A stretch of DNA of 64,000 nt from Escherichia phage vB_EcoM_IME392: sequence record MH719082.1; one strand, written 5' to 3'. Made by a program: the position numbers and the translations under genes. This document shows positions 32,371 through 50,147 of the stretch, piece by piece (within the stretch, counting starts at the first letter, position 1; each line of letters starts with the position of its first letter). The notes below the pieces were generated by a model that saw only the letters and a program-made list of their open reading frames with translations, ran no database searches and was not told where the DNA came from.

Positions 32371-33138
32371 ATGAGCAATTATACTGGGGCATTTAACTTT
32401 CATGCTCAGGTGTACCAATTTGAAGAAAGTGATGTGGTTAAAGGTGGCCCGGACGGCATTGATAACGTGCCTCTTACCCAGCTGTCAGATCGTACGTTTT
32501 ATCTTAAGGCTCTTGCTGACTTTACATTCCTTAAGCTATTCAATCTTAATCCTCTCGGCTCGTTCAAACAAGGATTCCAGATTAACGTGGCTGGGTATGC
32601 GGTCTTCGACGAGGCCTCCGGTAAGTGGTTTAAGTGGACAGGATCTCTACCTAAAGTAGTGGTTAAGTCTTCTAAGCCAGAAACTACTGGAGGTATCTAT
32701 GATCCAACCACCAATCCGAGCGGTAAGTGGGTGGCTATTGACTTCAGTGTTCTAGACCTTGGCGCTGGGGTTAAGATCCCTACAGCAGCTGCTCCTGGTA
32801 ATCTGTATAGCGGTAAGTACAATCCAGCCTTCGTTAAGATTGAGAATGTCTCCAATCTAGACATAGCAGAAGCCATATATACCAGACTAGGGAATGTGGT
32901 TACTGTTAATGGCAAGATCACTGCTTCTGCTACCGATGCCGGAGAAGTAATGAAAATAGGAATTGGCTTACCTATTAACGCTACCTTCTCAGATGACTCA
33001 AGCCTCTCAGGAGTTGGCGTTGGTATAGTAGCTGGTCAGATTTATGCCGATGTGGACAGTAGTGTGGCTGTTCTTGAGATTAATCAGGGTAGTACAGACG
33101 AGCTGTCTCTGAGATACACGTTCTCTTACACTATATAA
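32371..33138 (+). CDS. receptor-binding-protein anchor-domain protein
   Basis: N-terminus paralogous to 33151 gene; GKWFKWTGSLPKVV...TGG motif. Confidence 0.5.
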   Translation: MSNYTGAFNFHAQVYQFEESDVVKGGPDGIDNVPLTQLSDRTFYLKALADFTFLKLFNLNPLGSFKQGFQINVAGYAVFDEASGKWFKWTGSLPKVVVKSSKPETTGGIYDPTTNPSGKWVAIDFSVLDLGAGVKIPTAAAPGNLYSGKYNPAFVKIENVSNLDIAEAIYTRLGNVVTVNGKITASATDAGEVMKIGIGLPINATFSDDSSLSGVGVGIVAGQIYADVDSSVAVLEINQGSTDELSLRYTFSYTI

Positions 33139-33150
33139 TAGGATATCGAA

Positions 33151-34068
33151 ATGGGTACTTATCAGGGTAAAAATCAGTACGTAGAGGACATCTATACCTT
33201 CGAACGTACTGACAAAGTGTCGGGTGGTGATGACGGTATTGATAACGTACCCATTAAGAATCTTACCGACAGAACTACATATCTCCGTAGTCTAGCATTG
33301 AATTCATTCCTGGATATCTATGGGATTAACCCAGTAGGTACTTTCGGGATAGGATTTGATCTCCAGGACTCTGGGGATGGTGTGTATGACGAGGTGTCTG
33401 GCAAGTGGTATTACTGGCTAGGCTCCTTCCCCAAATCTGTTGCCGAGAATTCTTCTCCGGAAGATACTGGTGGTATCTTCGACCCAGAAAGTAATCCAGA
33501 TGGATTATGGACTGAGGTAATTCCGGTAAACCAGCGTCAGGTAGATATGGCTGCTCGGGCATTCCGAGTTAAGACCGAAGAAGTCCAGTTCATGAAAGTA
33601 GGTCGTCCTCTCGACGGCTTTCGTGTATTGTATGACTTAGCTTCCCAGGAAGCTTATCGTTTACCTATGGATATCCCTGAAGGATCAACTATTGTTAGCT
33701 TAACAGACGGAGGGTGGCTAGAGCATAGCAATGGCAGGGTAAACTTATCTGCTTACGCCGTCGAATTAGAAGAGTATAAGTACTTTACCGGAGGCGACTT
33801 CAGTACCGGCTTTACTCTACGTCAGAACCACTGCATAGTTATGCATGATGGTGTTCTGTATCGCTGGGATGGCGATTTTCCGAAGACCGTAAATGCTAAC
33901 AGTACTCCAGAATCAGACGGTATTGGTGATGGTAAATGGGTTCCTGTTAAGACTGGTGCCCTGTATCGCTATGCTACTGTTGCCCAGTTAGATAGTGTTG
34001 AGAATGCTCTAACTACTCGCATAAACGAAGTAGAGAGCGCCGCTTTTGTTAACGCATTACTGTTCTAA
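33151..34068 (+). CDS. receptor-binding-protein anchor-domain protein (two motif copies)
   Basis: GKWYYWLGSFPKSV and VLYRWDGDFPKTV repeats. Confidence 0.5.
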   Translation: MGTYQGKNQYVEDIYTFERTDKVSGGDDGIDNVPIKNLTDRTTYLRSLALNSFLDIYGINPVGTFGIGFDLQDSGDGVYDEVSGKWYYWLGSFPKSVAENSSPEDTGGIFDPESNPDGLWTEVIPVNQRQVDMAARAFRVKTEEVQFMKVGRPLDGFRVLYDLASQEAYRLPMDIPEGSTIVSLTDGGWLEHSNGRVNLSAYAVELEEYKYFTGGDFSTGFTLRQNHCIVMHDGVLYRWDGDFPKTVNANSTPESDGIGDGKWVPVKTGALYRYATVAQLDSVENALTTRINEVESAAFVNALLF

Positions 34069-34077
34069 GGAATACCC

Positions 34078-34419
34078 ATGGCAGCTAAATTTAAACGAGC
34101 TAGCGCTACGCTAACTAAATCTGAATCTACCATTTATACTACTCCGGCTACTGGTGCTATAATCGTTGGAATCCTGGCAGCCCATAATGGTGTTACAGAT
34201 GCTGCAGCTCAGTTTCAGCTTAAGATTAAACCTGCATCTGGAAATGATGTATACCTGCTAGGTAAAGACACTAATCTTCCTCAGAAGTCGGCATTGAATA
34301 TCGATTCTGCTAAGGTAATTCTCATGGATGGTGATCAGGTAGTAGCTTCAGCATCTGCTGTAGATACTTCTAATAACTCGAACATGGTAGACCTGACTCT
34401 TTCCATTGTGGAGAACTAA
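34078..34419 (+). CDS. hypothetical tail protein
   Basis: 113 aa ORF with AAGGA RBS. Confidence 0.45.
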   Translation: MAAKFKRASATLTKSESTIYTTPATGAIIVGILAAHNGVTDAAAQFQLKIKPASGNDVYLLGKDTNLPQKSALNIDSAKVILMDGDQVVASASAVDTSNNSNMVDLTLSIVEN

Positions 34420-34420
34420 T

Positions 34421-35767
34421 ATGGGTGGTTATATTGGTTTCAATCCATCTGATGGTGCTGGTGAACTTCGTAATGAATTGACTCCTAAGATCAAGAACAA
34501 CCAGGATAACATCATCGAGTTGTGGGCGAATGACTTAGCCGATTGTGGTTACAATCTGGCAGCTACTTTCGAGTTCGGTGGTATCTTATCTAACCGATTC
34601 GATCTGGTAGTATCTCTTGATCGTCAGCGTGCATATTCATGGAAGGGTAACTTTCCAGTAGATATTGCAAACGCACCTATCACCCATTCTAATTGGGTAC
34701 CTTGGTCGATCGACCAAATGGGTGCTGGTAACTTATTGGAAGTTAAGTGGGTATCCTCTCGTAAGTTATTAGGGTCACCATTATGGGGTGGATTCGTAGC
34801 AGCTGATGGTGGTATCTTCTCACGTATCTTGTATCCTGATACTTGGGCAGCAGTCAATGCTGGACTAGTACAAGTATGTCCTGAAGCTGACTGGGTAGCT
34901 GATCCTACTAAGCGCCACTGCTATACTACTGGTGATGGTACTACTACCTTCCGAGTACCTGACTTAAATGGTGCGTACCGTCATCCTAGTGACTCCTCTA
35001 AGAACTCCATTCCAGGATTATTCTTACGTGGTGATAATGGTAGTGACTACGGATACGTCCAGCGTAATGCTGCACCTAATATTACTGGTATTATACAAGG
35101 TCGTACTTCTGGTACTTATGGTCGACTATTCAGTCAATCTACTATTAATAGTGGAGCATTACAAACTAGTGATGAGAATGGTGGTGAATTCGCTACTGGT
35201 ACAGTAACTGCATCGACTCCATCTGATCGTATGAGTAAGTTACTATTTGATGCATCAAAATCACTTACACCAGGTGCTGAGGCTTACGGTCGTGCTGAAC
35301 CTAATGGTGCACCTGCTGATGAAGTCCGACCTAACAGTGCAGTAGGTTGTTACGCTATCCGTCTACAAGGTCGAGTTGTGAATCCCGGTACGGTGGATCT
35401 GTTATCATTAGTTGATACAGTTGCAGGTATGACTATAGGTAATACACCTAGCAGTAATCAGATTCCTAACATGAAGCATTGGACTCGTGGAGGGTCAGGT
35501 CGTGCATGGTGGAGGAAAGAACCTGATGGATTCATTAGACAGGGAGGATTCTTTACTGCTAATGTTAGACCTGGTTCAGGTACTAAAGTGTACGTTGATG
35601 TAACATGGGCTATACCATTCCCTAATGAATGTAACTCAGTAACCGTAGGTGATGCTGGATTCGGTGATGGTAATATGTGGGGCGCCACTAATATCACCAG
35701 GACTGGAGCTCGTTTATGGTGTAGCGCAGTAGGCGAGGGTGGTTACTACTTGGCTGAGGGCTACTAA
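34421..35767 (+). CDS. tail fibre protein
   Basis: start ATG 34421; shares TTFRVPDLNG...RGDNG...NGAPNITG block with 36207 gene. Confidence 0.55.
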   Translation: MGGYIGFNPSDGAGELRNELTPKIKNNQDNIIELWANDLADCGYNLAATFEFGGILSNRFDLVVSLDRQRAYSWKGNFPVDIANAPITHSNWVPWSIDQMGAGNLLEVKWVSSRKLLGSPLWGGFVAADGGIFSRILYPDTWAAVNAGLVQVCPEADWVADPTKRHCYTTGDGTTTFRVPDLNGAYRHPSDSSKNSIPGLFLRGDNGSDYGYVQRNAAPNITGIIQGRTSGTYGRLFSQSTINSGALQTSDENGGEFATGTVTASTPSDRMSKLLFDASKSLTPGAEAYGRAEPNGAPADEVRPNSAVGCYAIRLQGRVVNPGTVDLLSLVDTVAGMTIGNTPSSNQIPNMKHWTRGGSGRAWWRKEPDGFIRQGGFFTANVRPGSGTKVYVDVTWAIPFPNECNSVTVGDAGFGDGNMWGATNITRTGARLWCSAVGEGGYYLAEGY

Positions 35768-36195
35768 TGGCTAATTATCTATATAGCAATTCTCGTAAAT
35801 CGTTCTATCCAGTATCGTTAATAGAAAATTATCAAAATAGCATAAACGGATTACCTGAAGATTTAGTAGAAGTCAGTGATTCTGACTTTAATGAATTTTC
35901 TCAGAGTCGTACTAATGAGTGCTGTAATTTAACTGAATCAGGATTCGAGTGGATTCCTAAAGGTCCTGAACCAGTATCAGTCGAAGATGCTCATCGTATC
36001 AAGAGTATCTTGATAAATAGTGCTAATAAGACTATTAGTACCTGGCAGACTAAGTTGATGCTTAATAGACTATCTGACGAAGATAAAGTCAAACTGAATG
36101 CTTGGTTGGACTACATCGATGAGCTGGAAGCTATCAATCCTGACTCAGTAGAAGATACATCAGCTATCCCGTGGCCTACTGCTCCTGAAGCATAA
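35767..36195 (+). CDS. tail fibre assembly chaperone (Tfa-like)
   Basis: 142 aa; C-terminal LNAWLDYIDELEAINPD...IPWPTAP. Confidence 0.55.
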   Translation: MANYLYSNSRKSFYPVSLIENYQNSINGLPEDLVEVSDSDFNEFSQSRTNECCNLTESGFEWIPKGPEPVSVEDAHRIKSILINSANKTISTWQTKLMLNRLSDEDKVKLNAWLDYIDELEAINPDSVEDTSAIPWPTAPEA

Positions 36196-36206
36196 AGAGG
36201 TATAAA

Positions 36207-37658
36207 ATGTCAAATGGATATATTGGTACCTACCCTAAATTCGCTATTTATTCTCCTGAGAAATTGGCGAAAGGTACCACCACTAAGACTCTGCAGTATG
36301 CTCCAGGATCAGCTTATGCAATTCTGGTAGTAGTAGGCGGGGCGATTCAGGAACCTAACGTAGCCTATACTGTAGCAGGTAATGTCATTACTTTCACGGA
36401 GACGCTCCCGTACGATGGATGGGTTCAGTACCGTGGACTTGAAGGTAAGGATGCTACTGACTTTATCGCAGCTGCAGGTGATCCAGTACTATCAGCACGT
36501 TGGGCATTCTCACGTGATCATATCTGGGATGGATTCGTTCCACTAGATGGTCAGGAATTATCTCGTGCTATGTACCCGTCAGCATGGGAGGCTATCAATG
36601 CTGGATTAGTACCAGTCGAGGATGATGCTGCATGGTTGGCTGATCCCAAGAAACGTGCATCGTTTACTAAGGGTGATGGTACTTCAACATTCCGAGTACC
36701 TGACCTTAATGGTAAGTTGGGTGATTCTATAAAGGGACTGCACATCCGTGGAGATAATGGTGATTCAGCTCGTACCGGTAAAGTACTCCAGAATGGCGCT
36801 CCGAATATTACAGGATACACTAATTTATTAGGGTATAACACATGGGCAAATAATGCCGGAGCGGCCAACGGTGCATTAAACTTAAGCCAGGGTTTAGCAT
36901 TCTCCAACGGTACCGATTTAGTTGTAAACTCTTCTTACAGAGAATTAAGAGCTAATTTAGATGCATCTAAATCTAATGCATCTTATGGTCGTGACGGCAC
37001 TGATGAAGTGCGTCCTAATGCAGCTATTGGATGCTGGGTAGTCAAGTTATTCGCAGGTATCGCTAATGCTGGTGTAGCTGATCTGCAGCAAGTGCTAGTC
37101 ACGTTAGCTGGTAAGATGGATAAGACCAAGTACGAATTCGGTGTACCAATGATTGGCGTACCATTCTACTGGCCATCGGATAAGATGCCTGATGAAGTAT
37201 ATCCTGAGCTGAAAGGTATGCACTTCATCCAAGCTCGTGGTGATAACTTCGATGCTGAACTGTATCCTAAGTTAGCTACTGTTTATCCTAATAATAAGTT
37301 ACCAGATTTACGTGGTGAATTCATCCGTGGTTGGGATGACGGACGTGAAGTGGATACTGGACGAGCTCTGCTATCGCGTCAATCACATTCAATTATTGAA
37401 CACTCACACTATATGGAGTTGTGGACAGGTGACGTACTTCATTCTGGGGATGCTAGAGATGGGGTAAATGCAGGAGTACTGGCTACCTATGGTGATGGTG
37501 GGTCAATTAAATCTGACGAATCAGGTAATCATGTACCCTCCTTAGTACGAGCTATTAATACTCGTAATATTAATCGTTACAACGTAAATAGCGAAAATAT
37601 AAGCACAGAAAACCGTCCACGTAACGTAGCATATAACATCATTGTAAGGGCATTATAA
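36207..37658 (+). CDS. tail fibre protein with phage tail-collar domain
   Basis: VPFYWPSDKMPDEVY...LPDLRGEFIRGWDDGR. Confidence 0.6.
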   Translation: MSNGYIGTYPKFAIYSPEKLAKGTTTKTLQYAPGSAYAILVVVGGAIQEPNVAYTVAGNVITFTETLPYDGWVQYRGLEGKDATDFIAAAGDPVLSARWAFSRDHIWDGFVPLDGQELSRAMYPSAWEAINAGLVPVEDDAAWLADPKKRASFTKGDGTSTFRVPDLNGKLGDSIKGLHIRGDNGDSARTGKVLQNGAPNITGYTNLLGYNTWANNAGAANGALNLSQGLAFSNGTDLVVNSSYRELRANLDASKSNASYGRDGTDEVRPNAAIGCWVVKLFAGIANAGVADLQQVLVTLAGKMDKTKYEFGVPMIGVPFYWPSDKMPDEVYPELKGMHFIQARGDNFDAELYPKLATVYPNNKLPDLRGEFIRGWDDGREVDTGRALLSRQSHSIIEHSHYMELWTGDVLHSGDARDGVNAGVLATYGDGGSIKSDESGNHVPSLVRAINTRNINRYNVNSENISTENRPRNVAYNIIVRAL

Positions 37659-38266
37659 TGAGCATTGAATTTAACGATCAAGGTTTTGCCACCACTTCTG
37701 GTAAAGTGATGGTTTATAACTACAATGAAGATACTCGTGAATTCACATTTAATCGTGAAGAGTTTATCTACGTAGGTGTATCGGTACCAGCTCACTCCAC
37801 AATCGTTCCAGTGCCTGCAGAACGTGAAGGATATGCTCGAGTGTATCATGAAGATACCAAGAAGTGGGAATATGTAGAAGATCACCGTGGAGTAGAAGTT
37901 TACTCAAAAGCTGATCAAACTAAAGTAACTATCCAGGAACTCGGACCTATCGACGATATCTACACTACGATTGCTCCTACTTCAATCCATGATAATTGGG
38001 ATGAAGATACTGGTGCATGGGTACTAGATGAAGTTGCTGAGCACGAAGCTAAGGTGGTTGCGGCTGATGCCAAGAAAGTAACATTGATTGAGGATGCTAA
38101 TGCTTATATCAATAGTAAGCAGTGGCCATCCAAACTGGCAATGGGCCGACTGAGCGATGCTGATAAAGTCAAGTTCAATTTGTGGCTAGATTATCAGGAG
38201 GAAGTAGAAGCTATTGAAACTACTGATCCTGATACTATCGTATGGCCAGAAGCACCTGCTAAGTAA
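37658..38266 (+). CDS. tail fibre assembly chaperone (Tfa-like)
   Basis: C-terminal FNLWLDYQEEVEAIETTDPDTIVWPEAP, paralog of 35767 gene. Confidence 0.55.
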   Translation: MSIEFNDQGFATTSGKVMVYNYNEDTREFTFNREEFIYVGVSVPAHSTIVPVPAEREGYARVYHEDTKKWEYVEDHRGVEVYSKADQTKVTIQELGPIDDIYTTIAPTSIHDNWDEDTGAWVLDEVAEHEAKVVAADAKKVTLIEDANAYINSKQWPSKLAMGRLSDADKVKFNLWLDYQEEVEAIETTDPDTIVWPEAPAK

Positions 38267-38341
38267 TATTTATTAAGGGGTAGTTATGTCAATTAATTAC
38301 ATGACTCCAGATAGTATCGTGATTGTAAGTGAGGTGTCAAT

Positions 38342-38965
38342 ATGAGCCTCACCCGTCTTAAGTATTTAATGAACGAAGGTACAGATGCTGAAGTTGAAGC
38401 GTATCTACGCCAGCTGGGTATCGGTAATGGAGCTCCATTAATAGGAGTACCGTTCCCGTGGGTTCATCCTACCAAGATGCCTGATGAGATATTTACTTCA
38501 ATGAAGGGTATGCGATTTCTGAAGATGAATGGTCAGACATTCGATCCAGAAACATACCCAGAACTGGCTAAGCTATGGACAACTAATCAGTTACAAGATC
38601 TACGTGCACAATTTATCCGTGGATGGGATGACGGTCGAGGCATGGATGCAGGACGAACGATCAATACTGGTCAGTCAGATTCTGCCCCAGAAATATCTGG
38701 TTGGTTCAGGACTGTTAATACTGAGAATGCATCAATCTGGGAAAGCATAACATCAGGATTTGGTTCTGGAGCTCTCTACGGTACTAATACTAAAGGTCAG
38801 TATTATAGATTAGCGGGACTTCCAATGGATATTAACGCTACCTATAAGTATCCTACAGTAATTAACTTCTTGGCATCACGATCATCTTCAGTATATGGAC
38901 GAAACGGCACCAATGAAATTGTACCTAAAAACGTAGCATTTCTGTACATCGTTCGAGCTAAATAA
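38342..38965 (+). CDS. short tail-collar-domain fibre protein
   Basis: VPFPWVHPTKMPDEI...LQDLRAQFIRGWDDGRG. Confidence 0.55.
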   Translation: MSLTRLKYLMNEGTDAEVEAYLRQLGIGNGAPLIGVPFPWVHPTKMPDEIFTSMKGMRFLKMNGQTFDPETYPELAKLWTTNQLQDLRAQFIRGWDDGRGMDAGRTINTGQSDSAPEISGWFRTVNTENASIWESITSGFGSGALYGTNTKGQYYRLAGLPMDINATYKYPTVINFLASRSSSVYGRNGTNEIVPKNVAFLYIVRAK

Positions 38966-39044
38966 ATAAATAGCTACAATAGCAGGTGCAACTTGTACAT
39001 GGGTTATGATAAACGAAGTGTTGACAATATCATAGGGTGATTAA

Positions 39045-42032
39045 ATGTCTTATAATCCAATTGTAGAAGGGTCAACTTGGCCCGAGACTATTCGCCGCTT
39101 AGAAAAGACGGATAGGGCAGAAGGCGGTCAACTAGTTACTAATTCTAAGGATGAACCAGTATCCGGACATATTAATCATCCAATAACCCAATTAGCTACT
39201 AGAACCTCCATTTTAAAAAAGTCTAATTTATCGATAATTAATAATACTAAAGAACAGTGGAAGTTATTACTCGGTGACTTAGGACTAACTCTTGTTGGCA
39301 CTTTTGAAGAAGGTGCTACAGTAAACAGTAAAAAGGATGCTGTCTGGCATATTGATGGTGGCCAGTGCTACGTGTGGGGTGGCGTGCTCCCTAAGACTGT
39401 ATATGCTAACTCCTCACCGCTAACTACTGGTGGTGTCTCTTCTGATGCTTGGGTTAGTATTGGTGATACCGCACTGCGAGGGCAAATATCAGACCCGGAT
39501 GGTGCAACAAAATACCCCGAATTGCAGATTGCTCGATGGCGTGACATTTTCGACCCTCGTGGTTGGGGAGCTAAAGGTGATGGATTAGTCGATGATACTG
39601 TGGCTCTTAATAATCTGTTAAGCGCTGCTCCAGTAGGTCAGAAAATTAATGGTAACGGCAGAACCTATAAAGTATCCGCACTTCCAGATATTAGCAGATT
39701 CGTTAACACTCGTTTCGTTTATGAGCGTATTCCTGGCCAGCCGCTTTATTATGTATCTGACGAGTTTGTTCAGGGTGAGTTAATTAAAATAACCGATACC
39801 CCTTATTACAATGCTTGGCCTCAGGATAAAGCGTTCGTTTACGACGATGTTATTTACTGTCCGTTCATGGCTAGCGATCGGCACGGGGTTAGCAGGCTTC
39901 ATGTATCCTGGGTTCGCTCAGGTGATGACGGACAGACCTGGACGACCCCGGAGTGGCTAACTGACCTACACCCTAATTACCCAACAGTTAACTACCACTG
40001 TATGAGTATGGGGGTGATGCGTAATCGTCTCTTTGCGATGATTGAGACCCGTACTTTAGCAGCTAACGCATTAGTGACCTGTGAGTTGTGGGATCGCCCC
40101 ATGTCCCGTAACTACCATCTGACAGGTGGTATAACAAAAGCTGCCAACCAGCCTGTGGCTGTAATTACCATCCCTGAACACGGTCTTTTTGCTGGGGATT
40201 TTGTTAACTTCTCGAACTCTGGGGTGACTGGCGTTTCTGGGAATATGACTGTAACTTCAGTTATTGACCGCAACACGTTTACAGTTACCACGCCAAATCA
40301 ACAAGCATTCGACCAAAATAACTCTACCAGCCGCTGGCATATGGGGACATCGTTCCATCAGTCACCATGGCGTAAAACCAGCCTTGGATTGATCCCTATG
40401 GTTACCGAGGTTCACAGTTTTACCGCCATCAATAACGATTCATTCATGATGGGGTACCATCAGGGTGATGTTGCTCCGCGTGAAGTAGGTATGTTGTATT
40501 TCCCTGATGCATTTAACAATCCTGGGCATTATATAAAACGACGTATCCCTGCTGAATATGAGCCGGATGCGGCAGAACCCTGTGTTAAATATTTTGACGG
40601 TGTTCTTTATGTTGTAACCCGTGGAACTCGGTCGGACCGTCTGGGTAGTTCGCTTCATCGTAGTAATGATTTGGGTATAACCTGGCAATCATTGAGGTTC
40701 CCGAATAATGTCCACCACTCCACCCTGCCATTCGCTAAGGTAGGAAACGAACTGATTCTTTTCGGCACTGAACGCGCCGACAACGAGTGGGAAGCAAACG
40801 CACCCGACCAGCGATATTTTAGTTCTTACCCACGAACGTTTTACACGCGAGTGAACCTCGACACCTGGAACCTGGATAATACTCAGTGGGTGAATATCAC
40901 TGACCAGATTTATCAGGGTGGTATTGTTAACTCTGGCGTCGGTGTCGGATCGGTCGTCGTGAAAGATAGTTATATCTATTACATGTTCGGTGGGGAAGAC
41001 CATCTGAACCCATGGACATATGGAGATAACTTAGAGAAAGACCCATTCAAATCAGACGGTCATCCCTCAGATTTGTATTGTTACAAAATGCAGATCGGTC
41101 CAGACAATCGTGTTTCTCGTGATTTCAGGTACGGTGCTGTACCTGACAGAGCGGTTCCAGTGTTTTTTGATACGAATGGAGTTCGCACTGTTCCTGCTCC
41201 AATGGAATTTACAGGGGATTTGGGTTTAGGTCATGTGACCATTAGAGCCAGCACCAGTAGTAACATTCGCTCTGAAGTTTTAATGGAAGGTGAGTATGGG
41301 TTTATCGGGAAATCTGTACCGACTAATAACCCTGCAGGTCAGCGCATCATATTTTGCGGAGGCGACGGTACCAGTTCTTCTACTGGTGCACAGATTACGC
41401 TTTACGGTGCGAGTAACACAGCTTCTCGCAGGATAGTTTACAACGGAGATGAGCATCTGTTTCGGAGTGCTGATGTTAAGCCTTATAACGATAACGTCAT
41501 TGCGCTTGGTGGGCCTAGCAACCGTTTCACCACTGCATACCTCGGAAGCAACCCTATTGTTACTTCTAACGGAGAGAAGAAAACAGAGCCGGTAGTTTTT
41601 GATGATGCTTTTTTAGATGCTTGGGGCGATGTTCATTACATCATGTATCAGTGGTTGGATTCTGTACACCTGAAAGGAAATGACGCTAGAATCCATTTTG
41701 GCGTAATTGCTCAGCAGATCCGCGATGTATTCATTGCTCACGGTCTGATGGATGAGAACAGCACGGATTGCCGCTATGCTGTTCTGTGTTACGACAAATA
41801 TCCTCGCATGACAGACATGGTGTTCTCTCACTATGAAATAGTTGAACACACTGACGAGGAGGGTAATGTCACTACCACGGAAGAACCTGTATACACCGAG
41901 GTGGTTATTCACGAAGAGGGTGAGGAGTGGGGTGTGAGGCCTGATGGAATTTTCTTTGCTGAGGCAGCATTCCAGAGAAGAAGACTGGAAAGAATCGAAG
42001 CCAGACTTTCCGATCTTGAAAAGAAGCAGTAA
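39045..42032 (+). CDS. tailspike: sialidase-like beta-propeller with C-terminal S74 intramolecular chaperone domain
   Basis: 995 aa; Asp-boxes SGDDGQTW and SNDLGITW; C-terminal ARIHFGVIAQQIRDV...FAEAAFQRRRLERIEARLSDLE; N-terminal anchor motif. Confidence 0.65.
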   Translation: MSYNPIVEGSTWPETIRRLEKTDRAEGGQLVTNSKDEPVSGHINHPITQLATRTSILKKSNLSIINNTKEQWKLLLGDLGLTLVGTFEEGATVNSKKDAVWHIDGGQCYVWGGVLPKTVYANSSPLTTGGVSSDAWVSIGDTALRGQISDPDGATKYPELQIARWRDIFDPRGWGAKGDGLVDDTVALNNLLSAAPVGQKINGNGRTYKVSALPDISRFVNTRFVYERIPGQPLYYVSDEFVQGELIKITDTPYYNAWPQDKAFVYDDVIYCPFMASDRHGVSRLHVSWVRSGDDGQTWTTPEWLTDLHPNYPTVNYHCMSMGVMRNRLFAMIETRTLAANALVTCELWDRPMSRNYHLTGGITKAANQPVAVITIPEHGLFAGDFVNFSNSGVTGVSGNMTVTSVIDRNTFTVTTPNQQAFDQNNSTSRWHMGTSFHQSPWRKTSLGLIPMVTEVHSFTAINNDSFMMGYHQGDVAPREVGMLYFPDAFNNPGHYIKRRIPAEYEPDAAEPCVKYFDGVLYVVTRGTRSDRLGSSLHRSNDLGITWQSLRFPNNVHHSTLPFAKVGNELILFGTERADNEWEANAPDQRYFSSYPRTFYTRVNLDTWNLDNTQWVNITDQIYQGGIVNSGVGVGSVVVKDSYIYYMFGGEDHLNPWTYGDNLEKDPFKSDGHPSDLYCYKMQIGPDNRVSRDFRYGAVPDRAVPVFFDTNGVRTVPAPMEFTGDLGLGHVTIRASTSSNIRSEVLMEGEYGFIGKSVPTNNPAGQRIIFCGGDGTSSSTGAQITLYGASNTASRRIVYNGDEHLFRSADVKPYNDNVIALGGPSNRFTTAYLGSNPIVTSNGEKKTEPVVFDDAFLDAWGDVHYIMYQWLDSVHLKGNDARIHFGVIAQQIRDVFIAHGLMDENSTDCRYAVLCYDKYPRMTDMVFSHYEIVEHTDEEGNVTTTEEPVYTEVVIHEEGEEWGVRPDGIFFAEAAFQRRRLERIEARLSDLEKKQ

Positions 42033-42155: not shown

Positions 42156-44777
42156 ATGGGCGGTCGTTCTAAGTTATTTAGCGAACTGGGCGGAGCTCCT
42201 CTTAATACTTATCAGCATGATAACCAGACTCTCGATATTCGCGAGTTAGAAAATCAGCAGAAAGTATTAGACGAGACTCTTGCCGAAACAATAGGCAACG
42301 TTAACGAGTTGCAACAGACTGCTGGTCAGTCTATGTATATCCTCGGTAACTATGCCTCCGGAATGGTGATCGAGAACGACCGCCAGTACGTCAGATATGA
42401 TAATCTGCTGTACTATTGGACTGGTCCTGTACCGTTCACTACCACCGGCAACTTCTACGAAGAATCCTACTGGACTGGTGGGGTACAGAGCGGTATCGAG
42501 TGGAGTTACGAGGTACAGGAAGATGGGGAATTCGAGTTTAATATTCCTTACTCCTTTACCAACGTACGTCTATTCGTAGGTGGTGTCCGCCTTACTCGCG
42601 TAGAAGATTACACTATCGATGTGATTAATCGCAAGATCACTCTGACTAAGGTTAAGCTGTCGAAGGGTGTCCTGGTGACTGCCGAGCTGAACTCTCGTGA
42701 TGCTCTTAGCGTTACCCAGGATCGCATCGATAGCCTTACCAGAGAGATCTCAGAGAAAGTAGGTTTCGTTAATTACAAACTTACTGATCTGTCTGAAGGT
42801 CAGAGCCTGACTCTCACTACCAGAGTCCAGACTGTAAGCTTCTCAGTAAATGGGGAGTATTATAAATGGGATGGCGTTCTTCCTAAAGTTGTTAATTATG
42901 GAGATCCGGAGCCATCTCAATCTGAACAGGGGACTGGTAAGTGGATTCCTGTAGGTTCTGGTGCTCTTAAGTCAGAGCTCATGACTGCTGGCGAAACTAC
43001 TGGTGCTGCTATTGTCTATCTGAGATATGGTGGCACGGTGGCTGATGGTATTCGATACATCACCCCAGAAATGGCTCGAGCTAAAGGCGACGGTACTACG
43101 GACGATACAGCAGCTCTTCGCTCTGCTGTTACCCTGGCTAAGACTTATGGTCTTAAGCTTATGGGTATGGGTACTTACAAGATCTCTAACCAATCGGTGG
43201 ATATTTCCGGGGTAGTGATCGAGAACCTAACCATAGTTGGTACCGGTGCTAGTTCACAGCTGCTGGTTAATGGCGATACGGACATAACTAAGCTGAACCT
43301 TAGCAAATGCGGTATTCGTCACATCAACGGTATCTTTAAACTCGACCAGTTCGAAATTAATGACTGTTCTGCGACTGCTGCTCTGCTGTGTCAGCAATTA
43401 GCAGCTAATAGCCAACTGTTCGTCACTAATGGTATTATGCGTCGCTGTAACTATGGTTACCTCCGTCAGGGTAGTCCTGCATCTTCCAAGCCGCTCACTG
43501 CGACTCTGCTACAGAACTTACAGTTCTTCGACATGAAGAGCGACCCTATTGAGATTAACTTGGCAGTAGCAGATACCAATACCCGAATCGACAACATCAC
43601 TGTTGATAATGTCGACGCGACCAGCACTGGTAACGCTAACTGGGGTATTGCAATCGGTCTGGCTGGTACTGGTAACTACTCTCTGACTGCTCCGGACTCC
43701 GAGTATATGTCAGACGTGGTGATCAGTAATGTTAAGGTTAAGGGTGCTAAGCAGTGTATCCATATGGAGAAATGCCGAAACATCACTATACGAGACATCG
43801 AGATTTACCCAGATGTTAATAAGTCTACTGGCGTAGGTCTGGATACTGGCGGCCTTATTGCCTACGGATGCAAAGATATCGATGTGGATGGTGTGATCGG
43901 CTCCCCAGTTAACGGTACTGAGGAGATGATTCGATTCTTGTGGGGTACTGTAAACAGTGCTTACACCTTCGCTCATCGTAACATCCGTATTCGTAACGTA
44001 AATATCACTGGTACTGTTCATGTTGAGGTATGTACTACCGATACTCTGAACTCTACTGTCGAGATGAAGAATATCAAAGCTACCACTATATCTCTTCAGG
44101 GTATGGCATCCGAGTATCGTCTCTCGGACTGGTCAGCTGAGAAAATCATTCTCGACTTCCGCTACACGTCTGGTGATGCTCGAGATAACTACCGCCGTAA
44201 CAAGTGGATGGTTGCCAACATCTCCAACATGAAATGCCTTGATCCTAATACTGGTGCGGCTAACGTTACTGTCCAGAACATCACGGTGGATACTCTGGAA
44301 GTCTCGGATTGTAACTTCTCTATCCCGAAGACTACCACTGCTACTCACTACCGTGGTACTCCAGCATGGCGTCAGAACGGCGTGATTTATCATACCAAGA
44401 CTGGTACTCCTTACGGCATGGCTCTTCTTGCTGGTGACACTATTGTTGCCAGCGATGGAACTATGTTCACGGTGACCGCTCCTGGAGCTCTGTTCTATAC
44501 CAACGAAACTGTTGCGGCTGCCACTGCTGGGTCTAATTCTATCCGTTCTAAGGCTAACCTTAACTGGACTGGTCAGTATTATAAGACCGCTGGATGTAAG
44601 GTTAAAATAGCAGGAGGTGGTGGTGCTGATGGTGCTGATTATATCGGTACTATCATCCGTAGTGGTTATGTTAATGGCGGTAATTATTACTTTGATGTGT
44701 ACCCAGCACTTCAGTCTAACGTTCCTGATGGCGCAGTATTAACTTCTGTAGATACGCCAGCCTTTAAGACAGTTTAA
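42156..44777 (+). CDS. tailspike with right-handed beta-helix (depolymerase-like) domain
   Basis: 873 aa; two anchor motif copies; central repetitive N/G/T/V-rich region typical of parallel beta-helix. Confidence 0.6.
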   Translation: MGGRSKLFSELGGAPLNTYQHDNQTLDIRELENQQKVLDETLAETIGNVNELQQTAGQSMYILGNYASGMVIENDRQYVRYDNLLYYWTGPVPFTTTGNFYEESYWTGGVQSGIEWSYEVQEDGEFEFNIPYSFTNVRLFVGGVRLTRVEDYTIDVINRKITLTKVKLSKGVLVTAELNSRDALSVTQDRIDSLTREISEKVGFVNYKLTDLSEGQSLTLTTRVQTVSFSVNGEYYKWDGVLPKVVNYGDPEPSQSEQGTGKWIPVGSGALKSELMTAGETTGAAIVYLRYGGTVADGIRYITPEMARAKGDGTTDDTAALRSAVTLAKTYGLKLMGMGTYKISNQSVDISGVVIENLTIVGTGASSQLLVNGDTDITKLNLSKCGIRHINGIFKLDQFEINDCSATAALLCQQLAANSQLFVTNGIMRRCNYGYLRQGSPASSKPLTATLLQNLQFFDMKSDPIEINLAVADTNTRIDNITVDNVDATSTGNANWGIAIGLAGTGNYSLTAPDSEYMSDVVISNVKVKGAKQCIHMEKCRNITIRDIEIYPDVNKSTGVGLDTGGLIAYGCKDIDVDGVIGSPVNGTEEMIRFLWGTVNSAYTFAHRNIRIRNVNITGTVHVEVCTTDTLNSTVEMKNIKATTISLQGMASEYRLSDWSAEKIILDFRYTSGDARDNYRRNKWMVANISNMKCLDPNTGAANVTVQNITVDTLEVSDCNFSIPKTTTATHYRGTPAWRQNGVIYHTKTGTPYGMALLAGDTIVASDGTMFTVTAPGALFYTNETVAAATAGSNSIRSKANLNWTGQYYKTAGCKVKIAGGGGADGADYIGTIIRSGYVNGGNYYFDVYPALQSNVPDGAVLTSVDTPAFKTV

Positions 44778-44801
44778 TAGATTAAACTGAGGAGATTCTT
44801 G

Positions 44802-46253
44802 ATGTCCACCCAATTGCCAGATAGTCTGCAGTTAAGCAGCCTTAAGTACAAAGGTGACTATGCGGCTGGTATCTATCTAAACGGTAACCACTGCATTCTC
44901 AGATTTGTGCGTACTGATGGTAAGAAGGTGTTGGTTAAGTGGGTGGGGGACATCCCCCACACCACCGACGGTGAAACTCCGTATGCCGATGCCGAACAAA
45001 CTACTCTTAAAGCTGGATACGAGATCTTCGCCCAGACGAATGCAGTAGACTTCATTATTTCAATGCTTGGATCTTCTACCTCCTGGCGCTACATTGGCCA
45101 GGTAAACTCTGTGGAAGATCTGAAAACTATCACTCCTAAAGATGGCGATAGAGTGATGGTTAAAGGGTACTTCGGAGAGGGTACTCCTGGTGGTGGCGAG
45201 TTCAGAGTTAAAACGGAAAGCGACTCCATAGCCTCTGATAGTAAGGATGTGGTAAACGGTTGGGTAAGGGTTCGTCGTAGTAGAGAGTTCAGAGCTACCG
45301 AATTTGGTGCTGTTCCTGATAAATTCACTGACTCTACTGGTCAGGTTCAGGATATGCTTACCACTATCACCACTGGTCTGGCTATTATCGACCCAGGTGT
45401 AAAATACACTCTGGCCAGCTTAACTATTAAGCCTGGCGTCCAGATTCTGGATATGTCTGGATGGGATGGTAATTCATGGACGGCTGCAGTGAGATTCATC
45501 AGTAACTCTACTGATGGTTTAATTATCTCGTCTGCATCCAACGCTAACCTTAACCTTAACAGTAATAACGGGTTAGCCAGAGCTAAGGTATCTTACAGCG
45601 TAAGCGGAACTAAGATCTGGGAATCGGGTATGAGCGATGACTCTAACCGTGACTGGCATGTTCTTCGCGGAGCTGAATCTCGTTATCGTGTGGTAGCCTC
45701 TTCCCAGACTCACGCATGGAACCGAGATACCATAGTTGAAGGTGTCGATTACCACTTCGGTAAGAGAGCATCAGAGGATCATATTCTTCGATACGATGCA
45801 GTGAATACTGGCTATGATATCATTCATACCTACTATCACGGACCTACTCTTACTTCTAAGGTAACCCATAAAGGCGATGGATCAGTAGTCCTGACCCAGA
45901 ATGGTAAGGATACCATCAAGATAGTAGATGGTGTAATGACTGGTGCTCTTAAGAAGATCATCACGTCTACAGCTAATGTAACTCTTACCGCAGCTGATAC
46001 CGGTGCTATCTGCACTACCGATGGTGCCACTTCTGCTGTTACCGTTACCCTGCCAGTCGCTGTTCCTGGTATGACCTATGATGTTCTTGTAGGTGCCAAC
46101 TACAGCGTATCAGTAAAAACTGGTGGTACAGATCTCTTCCGTAATGGGAAAGCCACTATTTCCAACTCGGATAAGGGATCCTGGTTACGCTTAGTTTGTG
46201 CTATCTCTGGTTACTGGGAGATGGATACTGTTCAGGGTACCTGGGCAAGTTAA
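44802..46253 (+). CDS. tailspike/tail fibre protein
   Basis: ATG 44802 after GAGGAG; 483 aa in RBP gene series. Confidence 0.5.
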   Translation: MSTQLPDSLQLSSLKYKGDYAAGIYLNGNHCILRFVRTDGKKVLVKWVGDIPHTTDGETPYADAEQTTLKAGYEIFAQTNAVDFIISMLGSSTSWRYIGQVNSVEDLKTITPKDGDRVMVKGYFGEGTPGGGEFRVKTESDSIASDSKDVVNGWVRVRRSREFRATEFGAVPDKFTDSTGQVQDMLTTITTGLAIIDPGVKYTLASLTIKPGVQILDMSGWDGNSWTAAVRFISNSTDGLIISSASNANLNLNSNNGLARAKVSYSVSGTKIWESGMSDDSNRDWHVLRGAESRYRVVASSQTHAWNRDTIVEGVDYHFGKRASEDHILRYDAVNTGYDIIHTYYHGPTLTSKVTHKGDGSVVLTQNGKDTIKIVDGVMTGALKKIITSTANVTLTAADTGAICTTDGATSAVTVTLPVAVPGMTYDVLVGANYSVSVKTGGTDLFRNGKATISNSDKGSWLRLVCAISGYWEMDTVQGTWAS

Positions 46254-46269: not shown

Positions 46270-47091
46270 ATGTCCTTTATGGTATTGGCCGAAAGTGGCC
46301 ACATCGCTTTAGCTAAAACAGTGCATGATGCGACTCTGCACTTTGCATGGGGTACCATCCCTGATGCTGTAGCTGCTCCAGAAACCCTGTCTGCCTCCGC
46401 GGTAGATGGGGGTACTCTAAATCCGGCCACGTATACCTATGTGGTTACTGCAGCTAACAAATTCGGTGAAACTACTGCCTCCATGGCAGCCACTGCTACT
46501 ATCGTTGCTTCGGCTTCTCAGCAGTCTATTCAGTTAAACTGGGGTGCATCTGCGAATGCTGAGAAATACATCATCTATCGCCAGGGTGCCAACTCCTATG
46601 ATAAAATTGGTGAGTCTACTTCCAATAGCTTTACTGACAATGGTAGCACTACTCCAGATAGCAAGGTTAATCCTCCTACGACGAACACTACATTCCCGTC
46701 TGCATGGACTAAACCTGCACCTAATCCGGACCCGACGCTGCCTGATCTGTATGCTGAAGTCGGACGTCGTAAGATCCTCACCAAGGAATATGTGAAACCG
46801 GATCCTAACGGTACCATCGAAACGTCAGAAGGGAAGTGGTCTATCTCCGATAAGCCAACTAAGCATCTGTATCTGCATGTTCAGTTTAACTATACTGATG
46901 CTGCGGATGACATGATCTATCAGTTCGCTATCTTCATCGGAACTGTACCCACGAGTGGTAATGAGAATTCTCTTTACCTAACCCCAGACATGATTAAGGA
47001 CAAGGGAGAGATGCTCGGGATCGAGAACCACACCCTAATTATTCGTGAGTCCACTACCCGCGAAGGTCATTCTGTCATCCTCACGTTCTAA
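46270..47091 (+). CDS. FN3-like domain tail protein
   Basis: 273 aa; fibronectin-III-like segment LNWGASANAEKYIIYRQ. Confidence 0.4.
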   Translation: MSFMVLAESGHIALAKTVHDATLHFAWGTIPDAVAAPETLSASAVDGGTLNPATYTYVVTAANKFGETTASMAATATIVASASQQSIQLNWGASANAEKYIIYRQGANSYDKIGESTSNSFTDNGSTTPDSKVNPPTTNTTFPSAWTKPAPNPDPTLPDLYAEVGRRKILTKEYVKPDPNGTIETSEGKWSISDKPTKHLYLHVQFNYTDAADDMIYQFAIFIGTVPTSGNENSLYLTPDMIKDKGEMLGIENHTLIIRESTTREGHSVILTF

Positions 47092-47102
47092 TGGAGTAAT
47101 AA

Positions 47103-50100
47103 ATGGCAACTTTACCGTCTGATTACTTTAACAGATTTGCGGCTAAGAAGAACTACGCCAAGCATCTGTTTATCGCGGACAGGCCGCTCCAGAGCTCGGA
47201 GCTAAACGAAATTCAGGATCAGCAGCTCAATAACGTCTCTACACTGTCCGGCTTCTTGGTCGGTGATGGTGCCATTACTGATGGGGCGGATATTTCCGCT
47301 CTTGGAGACGGTGTAATCTCTATAACCGAAGGTACGCTAATCTATGCCGGTATGGCTATGAATGTACCTGCTGTTACGGATGCATCGTTTCCTACTGCTG
47401 GTGAGGCTGTTTTAGGTGTATCTATCTCTGATAAGGTAATCACCTATCTCGAAGATCCTGAGCTCCTCATGCAGTATCAGAACTCTCCGAGCTATGGTTC
47501 AGCTGGTGCTGACCGTCTCCAGAAGGTAACTACTTGGCTGTTGGCCGATGATGTTCCAGAAGGAGATACCTTCTTCCCAGTATTCTATTTCAAGAATGGC
47601 GTACTGGTTAAGACCACCAAGTCTCGTAATGATCTCGACCAGTTCTCTGGTCTTCTTGGTCGCTACGATTCTGATACTCACGGTAACTATGTTCTGGACG
47701 GATTAACTCTGTCCTATGCAGGCATCGATGGCTCTACCCAGCAGATTATGTTGAACATGTCTGCGGGCAAGGCTCGTGTACTCGGAAACGAAGCACTGTT
47801 CGCCTATGAAAGTACCGTGCGTCTGGACCCTATCAACGATACTGGTAACGTAGCTTCAGAGCCATACGTGTTTACAGCAGGTACTTACACCTATCAACTG
47901 CGCTACTCTGTAATTGATCAGGTAACTGCTGTATCCGGTACTAAGCAGGTAACTCGTACGGTGACTCATGGTTCCGCAACGGGTTCGTCTGACTTACTTC
48001 CGGATACTCCTGTTCTGCAGATTATTTCTGTACAGCAGGGTGGTACTGTCTACGTTAAAGGTAGTGACTATGTACAGAACGGGGACTCTGTAGACTGGTC
48101 ACCTACTGGTAACGAACCATCTCCTGGTTCTACTTACCAGGTTACGTATCAGTACATTGATCAGTTCATCCCGACCTGGAACGATACCTCCATCACTATT
48201 TCCACCAGTGATGCTCTGGTATCTGGGTCTACGTTCTACGTAACCTACTCTTACTTCCTGTCTCGCTATGACCGTGTATCTATCGATGCCTCTGGTGCGG
48301 TTCAGATCACTAAGGGTATTCCGGCAATCTTGGCAAACGCTCAGTTACCAGGTACTTCAGCTACGTTGCTGTCTATCGCAACTGTTCGTCTGACTAAGGG
48401 TCAAGATCCGGTCATTAACAATGACCGCATCGAAGTGGTTACTTATAATGAGCTAAAAGATCTGATGTCTCTGGTAAGCGACATGCAGTACAACATCGCC
48501 CAGCTTTCGCTCCGTGATGAAACTCGCTCTACCGATCCGACTACGACTAAGAAAGGTGTAGTAGTTGACTCCCTGCTTAACGGTAACATGCGTGATGCTG
48601 GATTAACCAACAACGCCATTATCGATGATGGTCAGCTGTTCATCGGAGCATCTTTCTCACGACAGTCCAGTCTGGCTCCTGATGGTATTATGTTATCATT
48701 CACTGATACCGTAATTCAGTCTCAGGAATTCCGTACTAAGGACACCCGCATCAACCCGTATGCTGGGTCTGGTCAGGTACCTCAGGCGATGATCTCTGTT
48801 TCACCAGCTAAGATCGATACTCGTAGCTTCTGGTCGTACTTCCATGGTGGCTTTCTGCCGGTAGATACTACGATCACGATTAAGCTATCTGGGTATGCTG
48901 CCAACGAACAGATTGATCTTACTTTCCGTAACCTGCCAGTGGTTACCTTGACTGCGGATGATAACGGTGCTGTACAGTATGCTCATATGCTGTCTGGTGG
49001 TTTGGTTAACGGTACGTATCAGTATGTTGCTACTGGTAAGACCACTAAGGCTATTACTCGCGGTACCGTAACCATCTACAACTCTGGTAAAGTCGACTAC
49101 GGTCAGAACTGGACTGGTGGTGCTGTTCCGTGGGGTTACGATCCAGTGGCTCAGACCTTCACTATCCAGGCTACTCGTGATATTAACGCAGTATCTATCT
49201 ATCTGACTGAGCTGCCTACTAACACACTCCAGATTAAACTGGTCCCTACTTTGGTAGGTATCCCTAACTCCACTCAGCTTTATGGCTTCGGTGAAGTTCC
49301 GGCTAATAAGTGTGTACTGGGGTGGAACAAGATCAATCTTCGTTATCCAGTAACAGTGACTGGTGGTACTGAGTATGCCATCATAGTTGCTACGGCTAAC
49401 TATCAGGGTAAGGTAGCCACAGCTAAGATAAACGGATATGATCCCGATAAGCAGCAGTATGTAGTGAATCAGCCAGCTCAGGGTGTTCTTCTGACTTCTG
49501 CGAACGAATCTACCTGGTCTCCAGTTCAGGATGAAGACTTAGTGTATCGTCTCCATGCTGCTGACTATAGTTCTACTCGCACTGTTAACTTGGGTTCTGT
49601 AACGGTGGCTAGCAATACCAACAGTCTTTCGCTTACTGCTGATATTGAGACTCCGGCAAATACCTCCGTGAGATTCTATCTCACTAACGGTACTGATAAC
49701 ATTAACCTCAACGTTAACTCTGAAACGTATACTGAGAACTTCTCTGGTACTTTCAGTCTGATGGCTGAGTTTAATACCGGTGATCCTACTGTATCTCCGA
49801 AGGTCTTCGGTGGCGTCATCTTCCGTTCTGGTACTACTGATACCCCTGGGGTATATACCCAGCGTCAGTTCAGTATTCCTAACGGTAACATTACTCCGGT
49901 AACTCTTAACGTCATCTTGGATCAGTATGTACCATCTGGTGCTAGCGTAACCGTTCAGTACCAGAAGGATAGCGAATGGGTAGCCTTGTCAGGGAGTACC
50001 GGAACCGCTCTGGGAGATGGGTGGTACACTGTACCTTACAAACTGTCAGGAGTAAATGTGGCTAATACCCGCATCCGTATCACCCTGTCTCTATCCAACC

Positions 50101-50147
50101 CAGTTAACCGTCCGTTCGTTAAGAACGTTCGAGCATACTTTAGTTAA
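47103..50147 (+). CDS. large tail fibre/spike protein
   Basis: 1014 aa, last large ORF of RBP locus. Confidence 0.5.
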   Translation: MATLPSDYFNRFAAKKNYAKHLFIADRPLQSSELNEIQDQQLNNVSTLSGFLVGDGAITDGADISALGDGVISITEGTLIYAGMAMNVPAVTDASFPTAGEAVLGVSISDKVITYLEDPELLMQYQNSPSYGSAGADRLQKVTTWLLADDVPEGDTFFPVFYFKNGVLVKTTKSRNDLDQFSGLLGRYDSDTHGNYVLDGLTLSYAGIDGSTQQIMLNMSAGKARVLGNEALFAYESTVRLDPINDTGNVASEPYVFTAGTYTYQLRYSVIDQVTAVSGTKQVTRTVTHGSATGSSDLLPDTPVLQIISVQQGGTVYVKGSDYVQNGDSVDWSPTGNEPSPGSTYQVTYQYIDQFIPTWNDTSITISTSDALVSGSTFYVTYSYFLSRYDRVSIDASGAVQITKGIPAILANAQLPGTSATLLSIATVRLTKGQDPVINNDRIEVVTYNELKDLMSLVSDMQYNIAQLSLRDETRSTDPTTTKKGVVVDSLLNGNMRDAGLTNNAIIDDGQLFIGASFSRQSSLAPDGIMLSFTDTVIQSQEFRTKDTRINPYAGSGQVPQAMISVSPAKIDTRSFWSYFHGGFLPVDTTITIKLSGYAANEQIDLTFRNLPVVTLTADDNGAVQYAHMLSGGLVNGTYQYVATGKTTKAITRGTVTIYNSGKVDYGQNWTGGAVPWGYDPVAQTFTIQATRDINAVSIYLTELPTNTLQIKLVPTLVGIPNSTQLYGFGEVPANKCVLGWNKINLRYPVTVTGGTEYAIIVATANYQGKVATAKINGYDPDKQQYVVNQPAQGVLLTSANESTWSPVQDEDLVYRLHAADYSSTRTVNLGSVTVASNTNSLSLTADIETPANTSVRFYLTNGTDNINLNVNSETYTENFSGTFSLMAEFNTGDPTVSPKVFGGVIFRSGTTDTPGVYTQRQFSIPNGNITPVTLNVILDQYVPSGASVTVQYQKDSEWVALSGSTGTALGDGWYTVPYKLSGVNVANTRIRITLSLSNPVNRPFVKNVRAYFS

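Follow-up and report, generated by a model that had tools for sequence, protein, structure and literature searches.

The multivalent adsorption apparatus of phage phi92, described by Schwarzer et al. in 2012, reportedly includes the endosialidase gp143, the colanidase gp150, and gp141, gp142, and gp151. A similar receptor-binding locus is analysed here at positions 32371–50147 of a 64,000-nucleotide (nt) stretch of Escherichia phage vB_EcoM_IME392 (sequence record MH719082.1; the whole stretch is referred to as the window). Genes are denoted by g and the position of their first nucleotide in the list of open reading frames (ORFs). The baseplate of phi92, a contractile-tailed coliphage, combines an endosialidase with a colanidase and other fibres or spikes (PMC5380687), and two products of the locus match phi92 proteins: g42156 matches gp150 (6E0V) and g39045 the endosialidase (4HIZ). 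However, the virion backbone is unrelated (the relatives of the wedge protein are not phi92-like phages), the predicted endosialidase is nearer to endoNF of phage K1F than to the phi92 enzyme, and the locus uses CBA120-type D1 and D2 modules together with a head-less proposed adaptor.

The D1 domain of CBA120 tailspike proteins (TSPs) plugs into XD3 sockets, and a head-less TSP4 is known in Limestonevirus (PMC11414711). Compared with TSP1–4 of CBA120 and Ackermannviridae and with gp63.1–gp66 of G7C, no match to the TSP4 N-terminus and no clear XD1–3 array were found here, and the wedge protein had no matches in Ackermannviridae. The D2-only module follows another anchor of 55 amino acids (aa), spikes are mixed with chaperone-dependent fibres, and the proposed adaptor is a separate small gene, not a spike N-terminus. 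In the Klebsiella jumbo phages RaK2 and phiK64-1, a similar assembly is seen: many depolymerases of RaK2 are assembled via D1, D2, and XD-like N-terminal domains, and its spikes bear D2, D1, and XD2-like domains (PMC10253068). RaK2 differs in its ~346-kb genome, its long fibres of nine proteins, and its one organiser, gp528, which bears five XD domains; no counterpart is detectable in the locus. Finally, K1F gp17 (endoNF) and g39045 are 82.7% identical in the catalytic part (g39045 aa 176–840) and 93.5% identical in the C-terminal chaperone, with all functional residues conserved and a D2-like segment upstream in K1F too, whereas the N-termini share only ~29% identity over aa 1–132. K1F, which has a T7-type adaptor, is a 40-kb podovirus, and the phage studied here is a myovirus-like phage of ~111 kb. 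The design of the locus is already known from phi92, CBA120/G7C, and RaK2; new are the lineage, the combination of parts, the pair of a knob fibre and a head-less protein, and the cleanly mapped exchange junctions.

Positions 31637–46235 are probably an exchangeable host-range cassette that runs from the wedge-like g30869 to the BW3TFN gene g46270 and holds four slots with swapped heads, an added fibre cassette, and g33151 as a proposed adaptor. The genes at its borders are as follows.

30869–32362, plus strand: third baseplate-wedge-like protein, 497 aa, following the gp25-like and gp6/J-like wedge genes
46270–47091, plus strand: BW3TFN connector of the T4 gp8 / A511 gp105 type (PF25691, E 8.6e-26, 91.4 bits at a cut-off of 27)
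47103–50147, plus strand: DUF4815 virion protein, 1014 aa (PF16075, E 7e-131)

Over positions 8000–31500, the window was 95.5% identical in DNA to Escherichia phage EP_H11 (OP688485, 111 kb), which was the sole match to this region within the phage collection and is annotated almost entirely as hypothetical proteins. The match stops at 31636, within g30869, and restarts at 46236, ~34 nt before the BW3TFN gene. In protein sequence, aa 1–200 of g30869 were ~95–100% identical to EP_H11 and the remainder ~35% identical; the protein was 98% identical to that of L002, a locus of the same type (type II, see below). The wedge role of g30869 was inferred from gene order. The C-terminal portion of the protein (starting near nt 31637, after about aa 256) lies inside the cassette and, as the cassette starts within a wedge gene, the baseplate-side docking surface appears to be swapped together with the receptor binders.

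At the other border, g46270 was 67% identical to its EP_H11 counterpart in amino acids, being most divergent at aa 41–120. BW3TFN proteins, which are T4 gp8 / A511 gp105-like dimers, join receptor-binding proteins to the baseplate (PMC10811340), and g46270 is a conserved baseplate-to-fibre connector rather than a variable receptor binder. Likewise, g47103 is conserved, probably as a baseplate-periphery protein, and not a variable receptor binder: it was 97% identical to EP_H11 in amino acids although the receptor-binding sets differ, and its solved homologue is 9EUF ('DUF4815 domain-containing protein | ORF65', E 1.6e-45).

The slots were defined by comparison with EP_H11 and eight loci from Logan assemblies. 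In the window, they are occupied by five genes.

32371–33138, plus strand: slot A, short knob fibre, 255 aa; anchor aa 1–55, D2-like domain aa 56–126 (32536–32748), knob aa 145–255 (32803–33135)
33151–34068, plus strand: slot A, proposed head-less adaptor, 305 aa; anchor aa 1–55, D2-like domain aa 56–126 (33316–33528), D1 aa 133–205 (33547–33765), D2 aa 206–272 (33766–33966), short coiled-coil tail aa 273–305 (helical, 33 aa)
39045–42032, plus strand: slot B, putative K1F-type endosialidase tailspike, 995 aa; anchor aa 1–55, D2 aa 85–141 (39297–39467), propeller, barrel, and stalk aa 176–840 (39570–41564), S74 self-cleaving chaperone aa 841–995 (41565–42029)
42156–44777, plus strand: slot C, putative colanidase tailspike, 873 aa; coiled-coil N-terminus, weak D2-like segment aa 62–112 (42339–42491), candidate XD-like segment aa 114–185 (42495–42710), D2 aa 217–267 (42804–42956), beta-helix body aa 278–866 (42987–44753)
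44799–46253, plus strand: slot D, small depolymerase-like spike, 484 aa; phrog_4250 'EPS depolymerase' (E 8e-11), weak D2-like N-terminus

The four N-terminal slots were conserved and their C-termini replaceable among EP_H11, L002, L003, L006, L007, and L008. Slot A is held by g32371 and g33151 in the window, by a 780-aa protein in EP_H11, and by proteins of 630–761 aa with beta-helices in other loci (P0004–P0006). Slot B is occupied by g39045 and by proteins of 560 (EP_H11), 795 (L002), 678 (L003), 775 (L006), and 700 aa (L008). The occupants of slot C (g42156, 824 aa in EP_H11, and 937 aa in L006) are ~48% identical over aa 1–204, and those of slot D (g44799 and the 472-aa genes of EP_H11 and L006) are 38% identical overall.

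The exchange of heads could be followed in DNA. Homology to L002 extends to 34101, reappears at 39027–39467 (g39045 aa 1–141, up to the D2 end), and resumes from 42093. Both L002 and L003 keep aa 1–141 of g39045 in DNA under the different heads of their slot B proteins, as the sequence-only reading, made earlier from the letters of the window, had expected when it proposed interchangeable heads on shared modules. The K1F-like head DNA begins at 39442–39446, which places the crossover at the D2 end (39442–39467), and the donor segments therefore overlap in 26 nt encoding 'SDAWVSIGD'. Recombination at, or close to, the C-terminal border of D2, in its last strand ('...AWVSIGD...'), exchanges the heads. 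K1F gp17 also has a D2-like segment (…GSTPETSGGIGLGAWVSVGDAALR…), at aa ~185–215 and immediately before its endosialidase, so that one and the same junction connects very different types of virion.

Two architectures were found among the relatives. Type I loci (EP_H11, L006, L007, and L008) carry spikes only, four of them in the complete loci (EP_H11 and L006). Type II loci (the window and L002–L005) carry g32371, g33151, a ~110-aa gene, and a different C-terminal half of g30869. The three type II loci that extend past the ~110-aa gene (the window, L002, and L003) contain a chaperone-dependent fibre cassette, and that of the window is wholly unlike those of L002 and L003.

The modules shared by the spikes were traced through a recurring N-terminal motif. 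All ORFs named in the sequence-only reading are present on the plus strand at the positions given here. Its strict pattern matched three times (g32371 aa 84, g33151 aa 84, and g42156 aa 233), and the core motif [WYFLC][YFHKV]xWxGx[LFVI]P gave seven matches in the six-frame translation (ORFs of at least 60 aa), all in plus-strand genes within 32371–46253. In 300 shuffles, the mean was 0.013 and the maximum 1. The motif, which is thus real, belongs to Pfam PF18668 (Tail_spike_N; gathering cut-off 25 bits). Scores of 38.2 bits in g32371, 100.5 bits in g33151 (two copies, E 5.7e-29), and 56.8 bits in g39045 are above the cut-off, and that of g42156 aa 217–267 (23.3 bits) is slightly under it. In total, five strong and three weak copies were found. 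The sequence-only reading had counted at least six copies, in 32371, 33151 (twice), 39045, and 42156 (twice); five of these are strong and the sixth, g42156 aa 62–112, is weak (independent E-value 0.0065 with our own hidden Markov model, hhalign probability 46%, below the Pfam cut-off). The other weak copies are g34406 aa 48–89 (hhalign 93.7% to the D2 profile, Pfam E 0.012) and g44799 aa 16–56 (hhalign 79.8%, below the Pfam cut-off). When the N-terminal fragments were searched against Pfam at E up to 5, the weak PF18668 match in g34406 was the sole addition.

In phage EP75, PF18668 covers TSP3 aa 90–155 and TSP4 aa 416–481. This region is the head domain D2 (TD2) of Ackermannviridae tailspikes, in the naming of PMC10253068 and PMC11414711. 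The Tail_spike_N domain has the three-dimensional fold of D2 in TSP1 and TSP3, the fold evidence coming from g32371. The recurring motif is the known D2 head domain of CBA120-, G7C-, and RaK2-type tailspikes. The earlier idea of a shared attachment module is correct in that modules are reused under different heads, but the motif marks a head/neck domain distinct from the baseplate anchor, and the anchors are slot-specific N-termini. A ~55-aa anchor (ExTD..GG..N.P..L..RT.YL) is common to g32371, g33151, and g39045 (slots A and B) and is followed by D2, whereas g42156 has a different N-terminal anchor of 200 aa. No long repeats were found in a DNA repeat search of the locus, and the D2 copies are therefore old paralogues or separate acquisitions and not recent duplications.

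The anchor and D2 of g33151 are 49% identical to those of g32371 (aa 1–123) and ~30% identical to those of g39045. This similarity would suit competition of the three proteins for the same baseplate sites, with virions carrying differing mixtures as a form of population bet-hedging, and so would the single slot-A protein with this anchor in type I phages. However, type I phages already hold slots A and B with related anchors, implying distinct sites, and we consider such competition improbable.

The slot B protein g39045 is predicted to be a K1F-type endosialidase (GH58). It aligned end to end with the K1F endoNF structures 3GVL and 1V0E (E = 0) and matched Tail_spike_N and four endosialidase families, PF12217 End_beta_propel (E 2e-205), PF12195 (E 4e-40), PF12219 (E 8e-78), and PF12218 (E 1e-35), the set also including the names End_tail_spike, End_beta_barrel, and End_N_terminal. 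The matches correspond to a six-bladed beta-propeller catalytic domain with an inserted beta-barrel and a triple-beta-helix stalk. The phmmer score was 1340 bits to K1F endoNF vs 772 bits to the phi92 enzyme (4HIZ, E 8e-231). Two Asp-boxes (SxDxGxTW) are present, SGDDGQTW at aa 292 and SNDLGITW at aa 540, as had been claimed for a sialidase-like propeller. The autocleaving chaperone proposed for the C-terminus was also recovered: Peptidase_S74 (PF13884) matched with E 1e-8, and 3GW6 matched aa 720–994 with E 2e-175. S841 and K846, five positions apart and at the cleavage site, align with K1F S911 and K916, in agreement with the numbering of the K1F dyad as Ser911/Lys916. The concept of the S74 Ser-Lys dyad has been described (PMC3742443). 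In an explicit alignment, H280, R479, E511, R526, and R577 of g39045 correspond to K1F H350, R549, E581, R596, and R647, which are listed as functionally critical (PMC12632334). Neither the sialidase catalytic residues nor the S74 dyad, the loss of either of which would have spoken against the prediction, is missing in g39045.

The beta-helix depolymerase-like spike seen earlier at 42156–44777 proved to be, by its matches, a phi92 gp150-type colanidase. The whole beta-helix body (aa 278–866) matched PDB 6E0V (phi92 gp150; E 3.8e-69), and the protein matched phrog_6117 'colanic acid degradation' with E 3e-176. Matches to WcaM-like NCBIfam models were far under the cut-offs; the 98% identical L002 gene carries a precomputed PF27800 WcaM assignment. 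A search for homologous proteins with the N-terminus of g42156 was empty, despite the existence of this L002 gene. The slot D spike g44799 matched PDB 24QI 'tailspike depolymerase' (E 3e-5) and was 38% identical over its full length to the EP_H11 472-aa gene in the same position.

In slot A, the receptor-binding C-terminus of g32371 has a viral attachment-knob fold. This gene had also been considered as a head-less protein, which was rejected because the receptor-binding knob is present. In g33151, aa 126–272 align with CBA120 TSP3 aa 16–159 (E 1.6e-28) and also with TSP1, TSP4, and G7C gp63.1. The only D1 (TD1) of the locus is g33151 aa 133–205, which aligns with D1 of TSP3, TSP1, and TSP2; none was detected in the enzymatic spikes of the locus. 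The counterpart of g33151 is a 316-aa protein kept in four other contigs. The helical tail of g33151 (aa 273–305, 33967–34065) is one 11-residue unit shorter than in P0001 and P0002 (ALTTHINTVNT / ALTTRINEVES), which explains the lengths of 305 aa here and 316 aa in relatives.

The ratio of nonsynonymous to synonymous substitution rates (dN/dS) was 0.06–0.09 for g33151 and 0.075–0.13 for g32371, compared with 0.05 for the wedge protein and 0.066 for the predicted colanidase. Both slot A genes are under purifying selection. These values bear on whether g33151 and g38342, an ORF of the fibre cassette listed below, are functionless truncated spike or fibre genes left by past cassette swaps. Such an origin would explain why g33151 stops 33 aa past D2, where related tailspikes run on into a beta-helix, and why g38342 consists of a fibre C-terminus only and is absent from L002 and L003. 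The dN/dS of g33151, however, lies in the range of the wedge protein and the predicted colanidase, g33151 is intact in five of five type II loci (the window included), and g38342 has its own GAGGTG ribosome-binding site. Because of the purifying selection and the intact copies in four other assemblies, we regard the debris explanation of g33151 as very unlikely.

The remaining genes of the cassette, between slots A and B, are the following.

34078–34419, plus strand: small protein, 113 aa; 31–33% identical to the 109-aa gene that L002 and L003 have there
34421–35767, plus strand: tail fibre 1 (g34406), 448 aa from the ATG at 34421; PF21882 (E 1.2e-6), Gp53-like C-terminal tip, tail-fibre PHROGs
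35767–36195, plus strand: assembly chaperone of fibre 1; PF02413 Caudo_TAP (E 8.2e-19)
36207–37658, plus strand: tail fibre 2, 483 aa, with collar and mosaic tip; PF07484 Collar (E 2e-10), phrog_523, phrog_6921
37658–38266, plus strand: assembly chaperone of fibre 2; PF02413 Caudo_TAP (E 8.9e-17)
38342–38965, plus strand: orphan fibre-tip ORF, 207 aa; 35% identical to g36207 aa 312–482, C-terminal parts of phrog_3100 and phrog_523

The sole family match of the 113-aa protein was the N-terminus of phrog_1276 (function unknown), and its position is kept in type II loci. Fibre 1 matched PDB 8HQZ 'L-shaped tail fiber assembly' (E 8e-30). Its start in the ORF list is a TTG at 34406; the ATG at 34421 is likelier because it lies 1 nt past the upstream stop and has GGAG 7 nt upstream. 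The product then opens with MGGYIG, which resembles other fibres (MSNGYIG, MGYIG). Pieces of fibre 2 match different phages, and the protein is 40% identical to fibre 1 over aa 94–302. Each Caudo_TAP gene lies directly downstream of a fibre gene. The product of g38342 resembles fibres only in their C-terminal collar and tip and lacks an attachment region. The ribosome-binding site of g38342 lies 5 nt before the ATG; the ORF may be a remnant, or else encode an orphan or alternative fibre tip. No match to the fibre cassette (34078–38965) was obtained by megablast against complete E. coli genomes, and the cassette is therefore not a recent prophage import.

The locus thus encodes eight fibre- or spike-type proteins (32371, 33151, 34406, 36207, 38342, 39045, 42156, and 44799), fewer than the at least ten of the sequence-only reading. 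Its other products are the two Caudo_TAP chaperones (35767 and 37658), the 113-aa protein (34078), and the two baseplate-periphery proteins (46270 and 47103). Overall, the observation made in that reading was confirmed and its interpretation upheld in the main points (swapped heads, endosialidase, and beta-helix spike).

The products would each form trimers whose N-termini fix them to the baseplate periphery. The endosialidase g39045 would cut the alpha-2,8-polysialic acid (K1) capsule and the colanidase g42156 colanic acid, and the knob fibre and the long fibres may bind further surface receptors. With these different targets of enzymes, knob, and long fibres, one virion could attack several surface types. 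A multi-target apparatus is well supported, in line with the several targets per phage proposed before.

The presence of g33151, the ~110-aa gene, and fibre cassettes together in the five type II loci, and their absence from the four type I loci, led us to propose that g33151 is an adaptor for extra fibres; the head-less protein would be a docking adaptor letting type II phages mount an additional fibre set. The physical arrangement was weighed in two forms. In the first, each fibre or spike plugs into the baseplate periphery by its own N-terminus, as proposed for phi92, with D2 being a trimeric neck and recombination linker and g33151 a short appendage. In its favour, the ~55-aa anchor common to g32371, g33151, and g39045 suggests a single type of baseplate site, and the C-terminal half of g30869 changes along with the set of receptor binders. 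Searches of the locus gave no significant XD domain, and each receptor-binding protein of phi92 is described as projecting from the baseplate (PMC11414711). This all-on-baseplate arrangement is quite possible and a serious rival. It accounts less well for the canonical D1-D2 pair of g33151, D1 being the plug for XD3 in CBA120, and for the long fibres, which lack the shared ~55-aa anchor and would need another attachment point. A weak match of g42156 aa 114–171 to the XD2-like region of RaK2 gp533 (aa 158–213; tblastn E 7e-3) also points the other way.

In the second form, g33151 would be a free-standing docking hub, a trimer of interaction modules (anchor, D2, D1, D2, and coiled-coil cap) that, with the 113-aa protein and the altered C-terminal half of g30869, turns the four-spike type I baseplate into one with seven or eight binders, exchangeable fibres included. 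We put this forward tentatively and regard it as doubtful. If true, g33151 would be a portable 'expansion adaptor' for host range, unlike the XD platforms that CBA120 and RaK2 have within their spikes. Physical branching of the apparatus is plausible. Two points weigh against an adaptor as part of the host-range cassette. A T4 gp10-like XD socket was indicated weakly, by the tblastn match above and by hhalign probabilities of 7–38% for the candidate XD segments vs EP75 TSP2 and TSP4; the phmmer match of the g42156 segment to EP75 TSP2 (E 9e-4, in a four-sequence database) was also weak, and a single-sequence AlphaFold2 model of g42156 aa 1–300 was unusable (predicted local distance difference test score 35). 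In addition, the type II loci are close relatives and not independent, so their co-occurrence gives the adaptor modest support.

The cassette lies in the structural-gene module of a tailed phage, a plus-strand block at 8833–51436. Genes for a gpV-like spike (PF04717), a gp25-like wedge protein (PF04965), and a gp6/J-like wedge protein upstream of the locus indicate a contractile tail. After EP_H11, the relatives of the wedge protein were from an Acinetobacter phage (43%) and then from Rhizobium, Vibrio, and Pseudomonas phages. A scan of the locus for promoters and terminators gave no excess over shuffled sequence. Word-indexed searches with g33151 and with g30869 yielded two clusters apiece, and no relative was found in an IMG/VR scan with g30869. 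In the public collections searched, the lineage is represented by one GenBank phage (EP_H11) and a small number of Logan assemblies, with no member in IMG/VR; the EP_H11 lineage is poorly sampled and very rare in public data. Nothing useful about tail proteins was found in the literature on PDB 9EUF and on EP_H11. A preprint on fusions of phage A-family DNA polymerases with uracil-DNA glycosylase cites EP_H11, a hint that DNA metabolism may be unusual in the lineage.

Elsewhere in the window, two phage tRNA genes were found on the minus strand, tRNA-Met (CAT) and tRNA-Arg (TCT), at 5645–5720 and 6190–6265, with ARAGORN and Rfam in agreement. A GH19 (chitinase class I) lysozyme-type domain is present in two proteins, a 952-aa tail-module protein (23484–26342) and a 215-aa endolysin (50358–51005). 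The former owes this assignment to a record on its near-identical counterpart in L002 and is annotated as 'murein transglycosylase D precursor' in EP_H11. A 61-aa reading frame (stop to stop) lies at 50148–50330, between the DUF4815 gene and the endolysin gene, where EP_H11 has an annotated 58-aa gene.

No new principle is revealed by the locus. The same toolkit of D2 and D1 modules, a K1F-type putative endosialidase, and a phi92-type putative colanidase is found in an unrelated, barely sampled coliphage lineage, with unusually clean natural junctions of receptor-binding cassettes inside the wedge protein, ~34 nt before the BW3TFN gene, and at the D2 end. For the engineering of phages against K1 and mucoid E. 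coli, these junctions and the small head-less proposed adaptor offer practical guidance.

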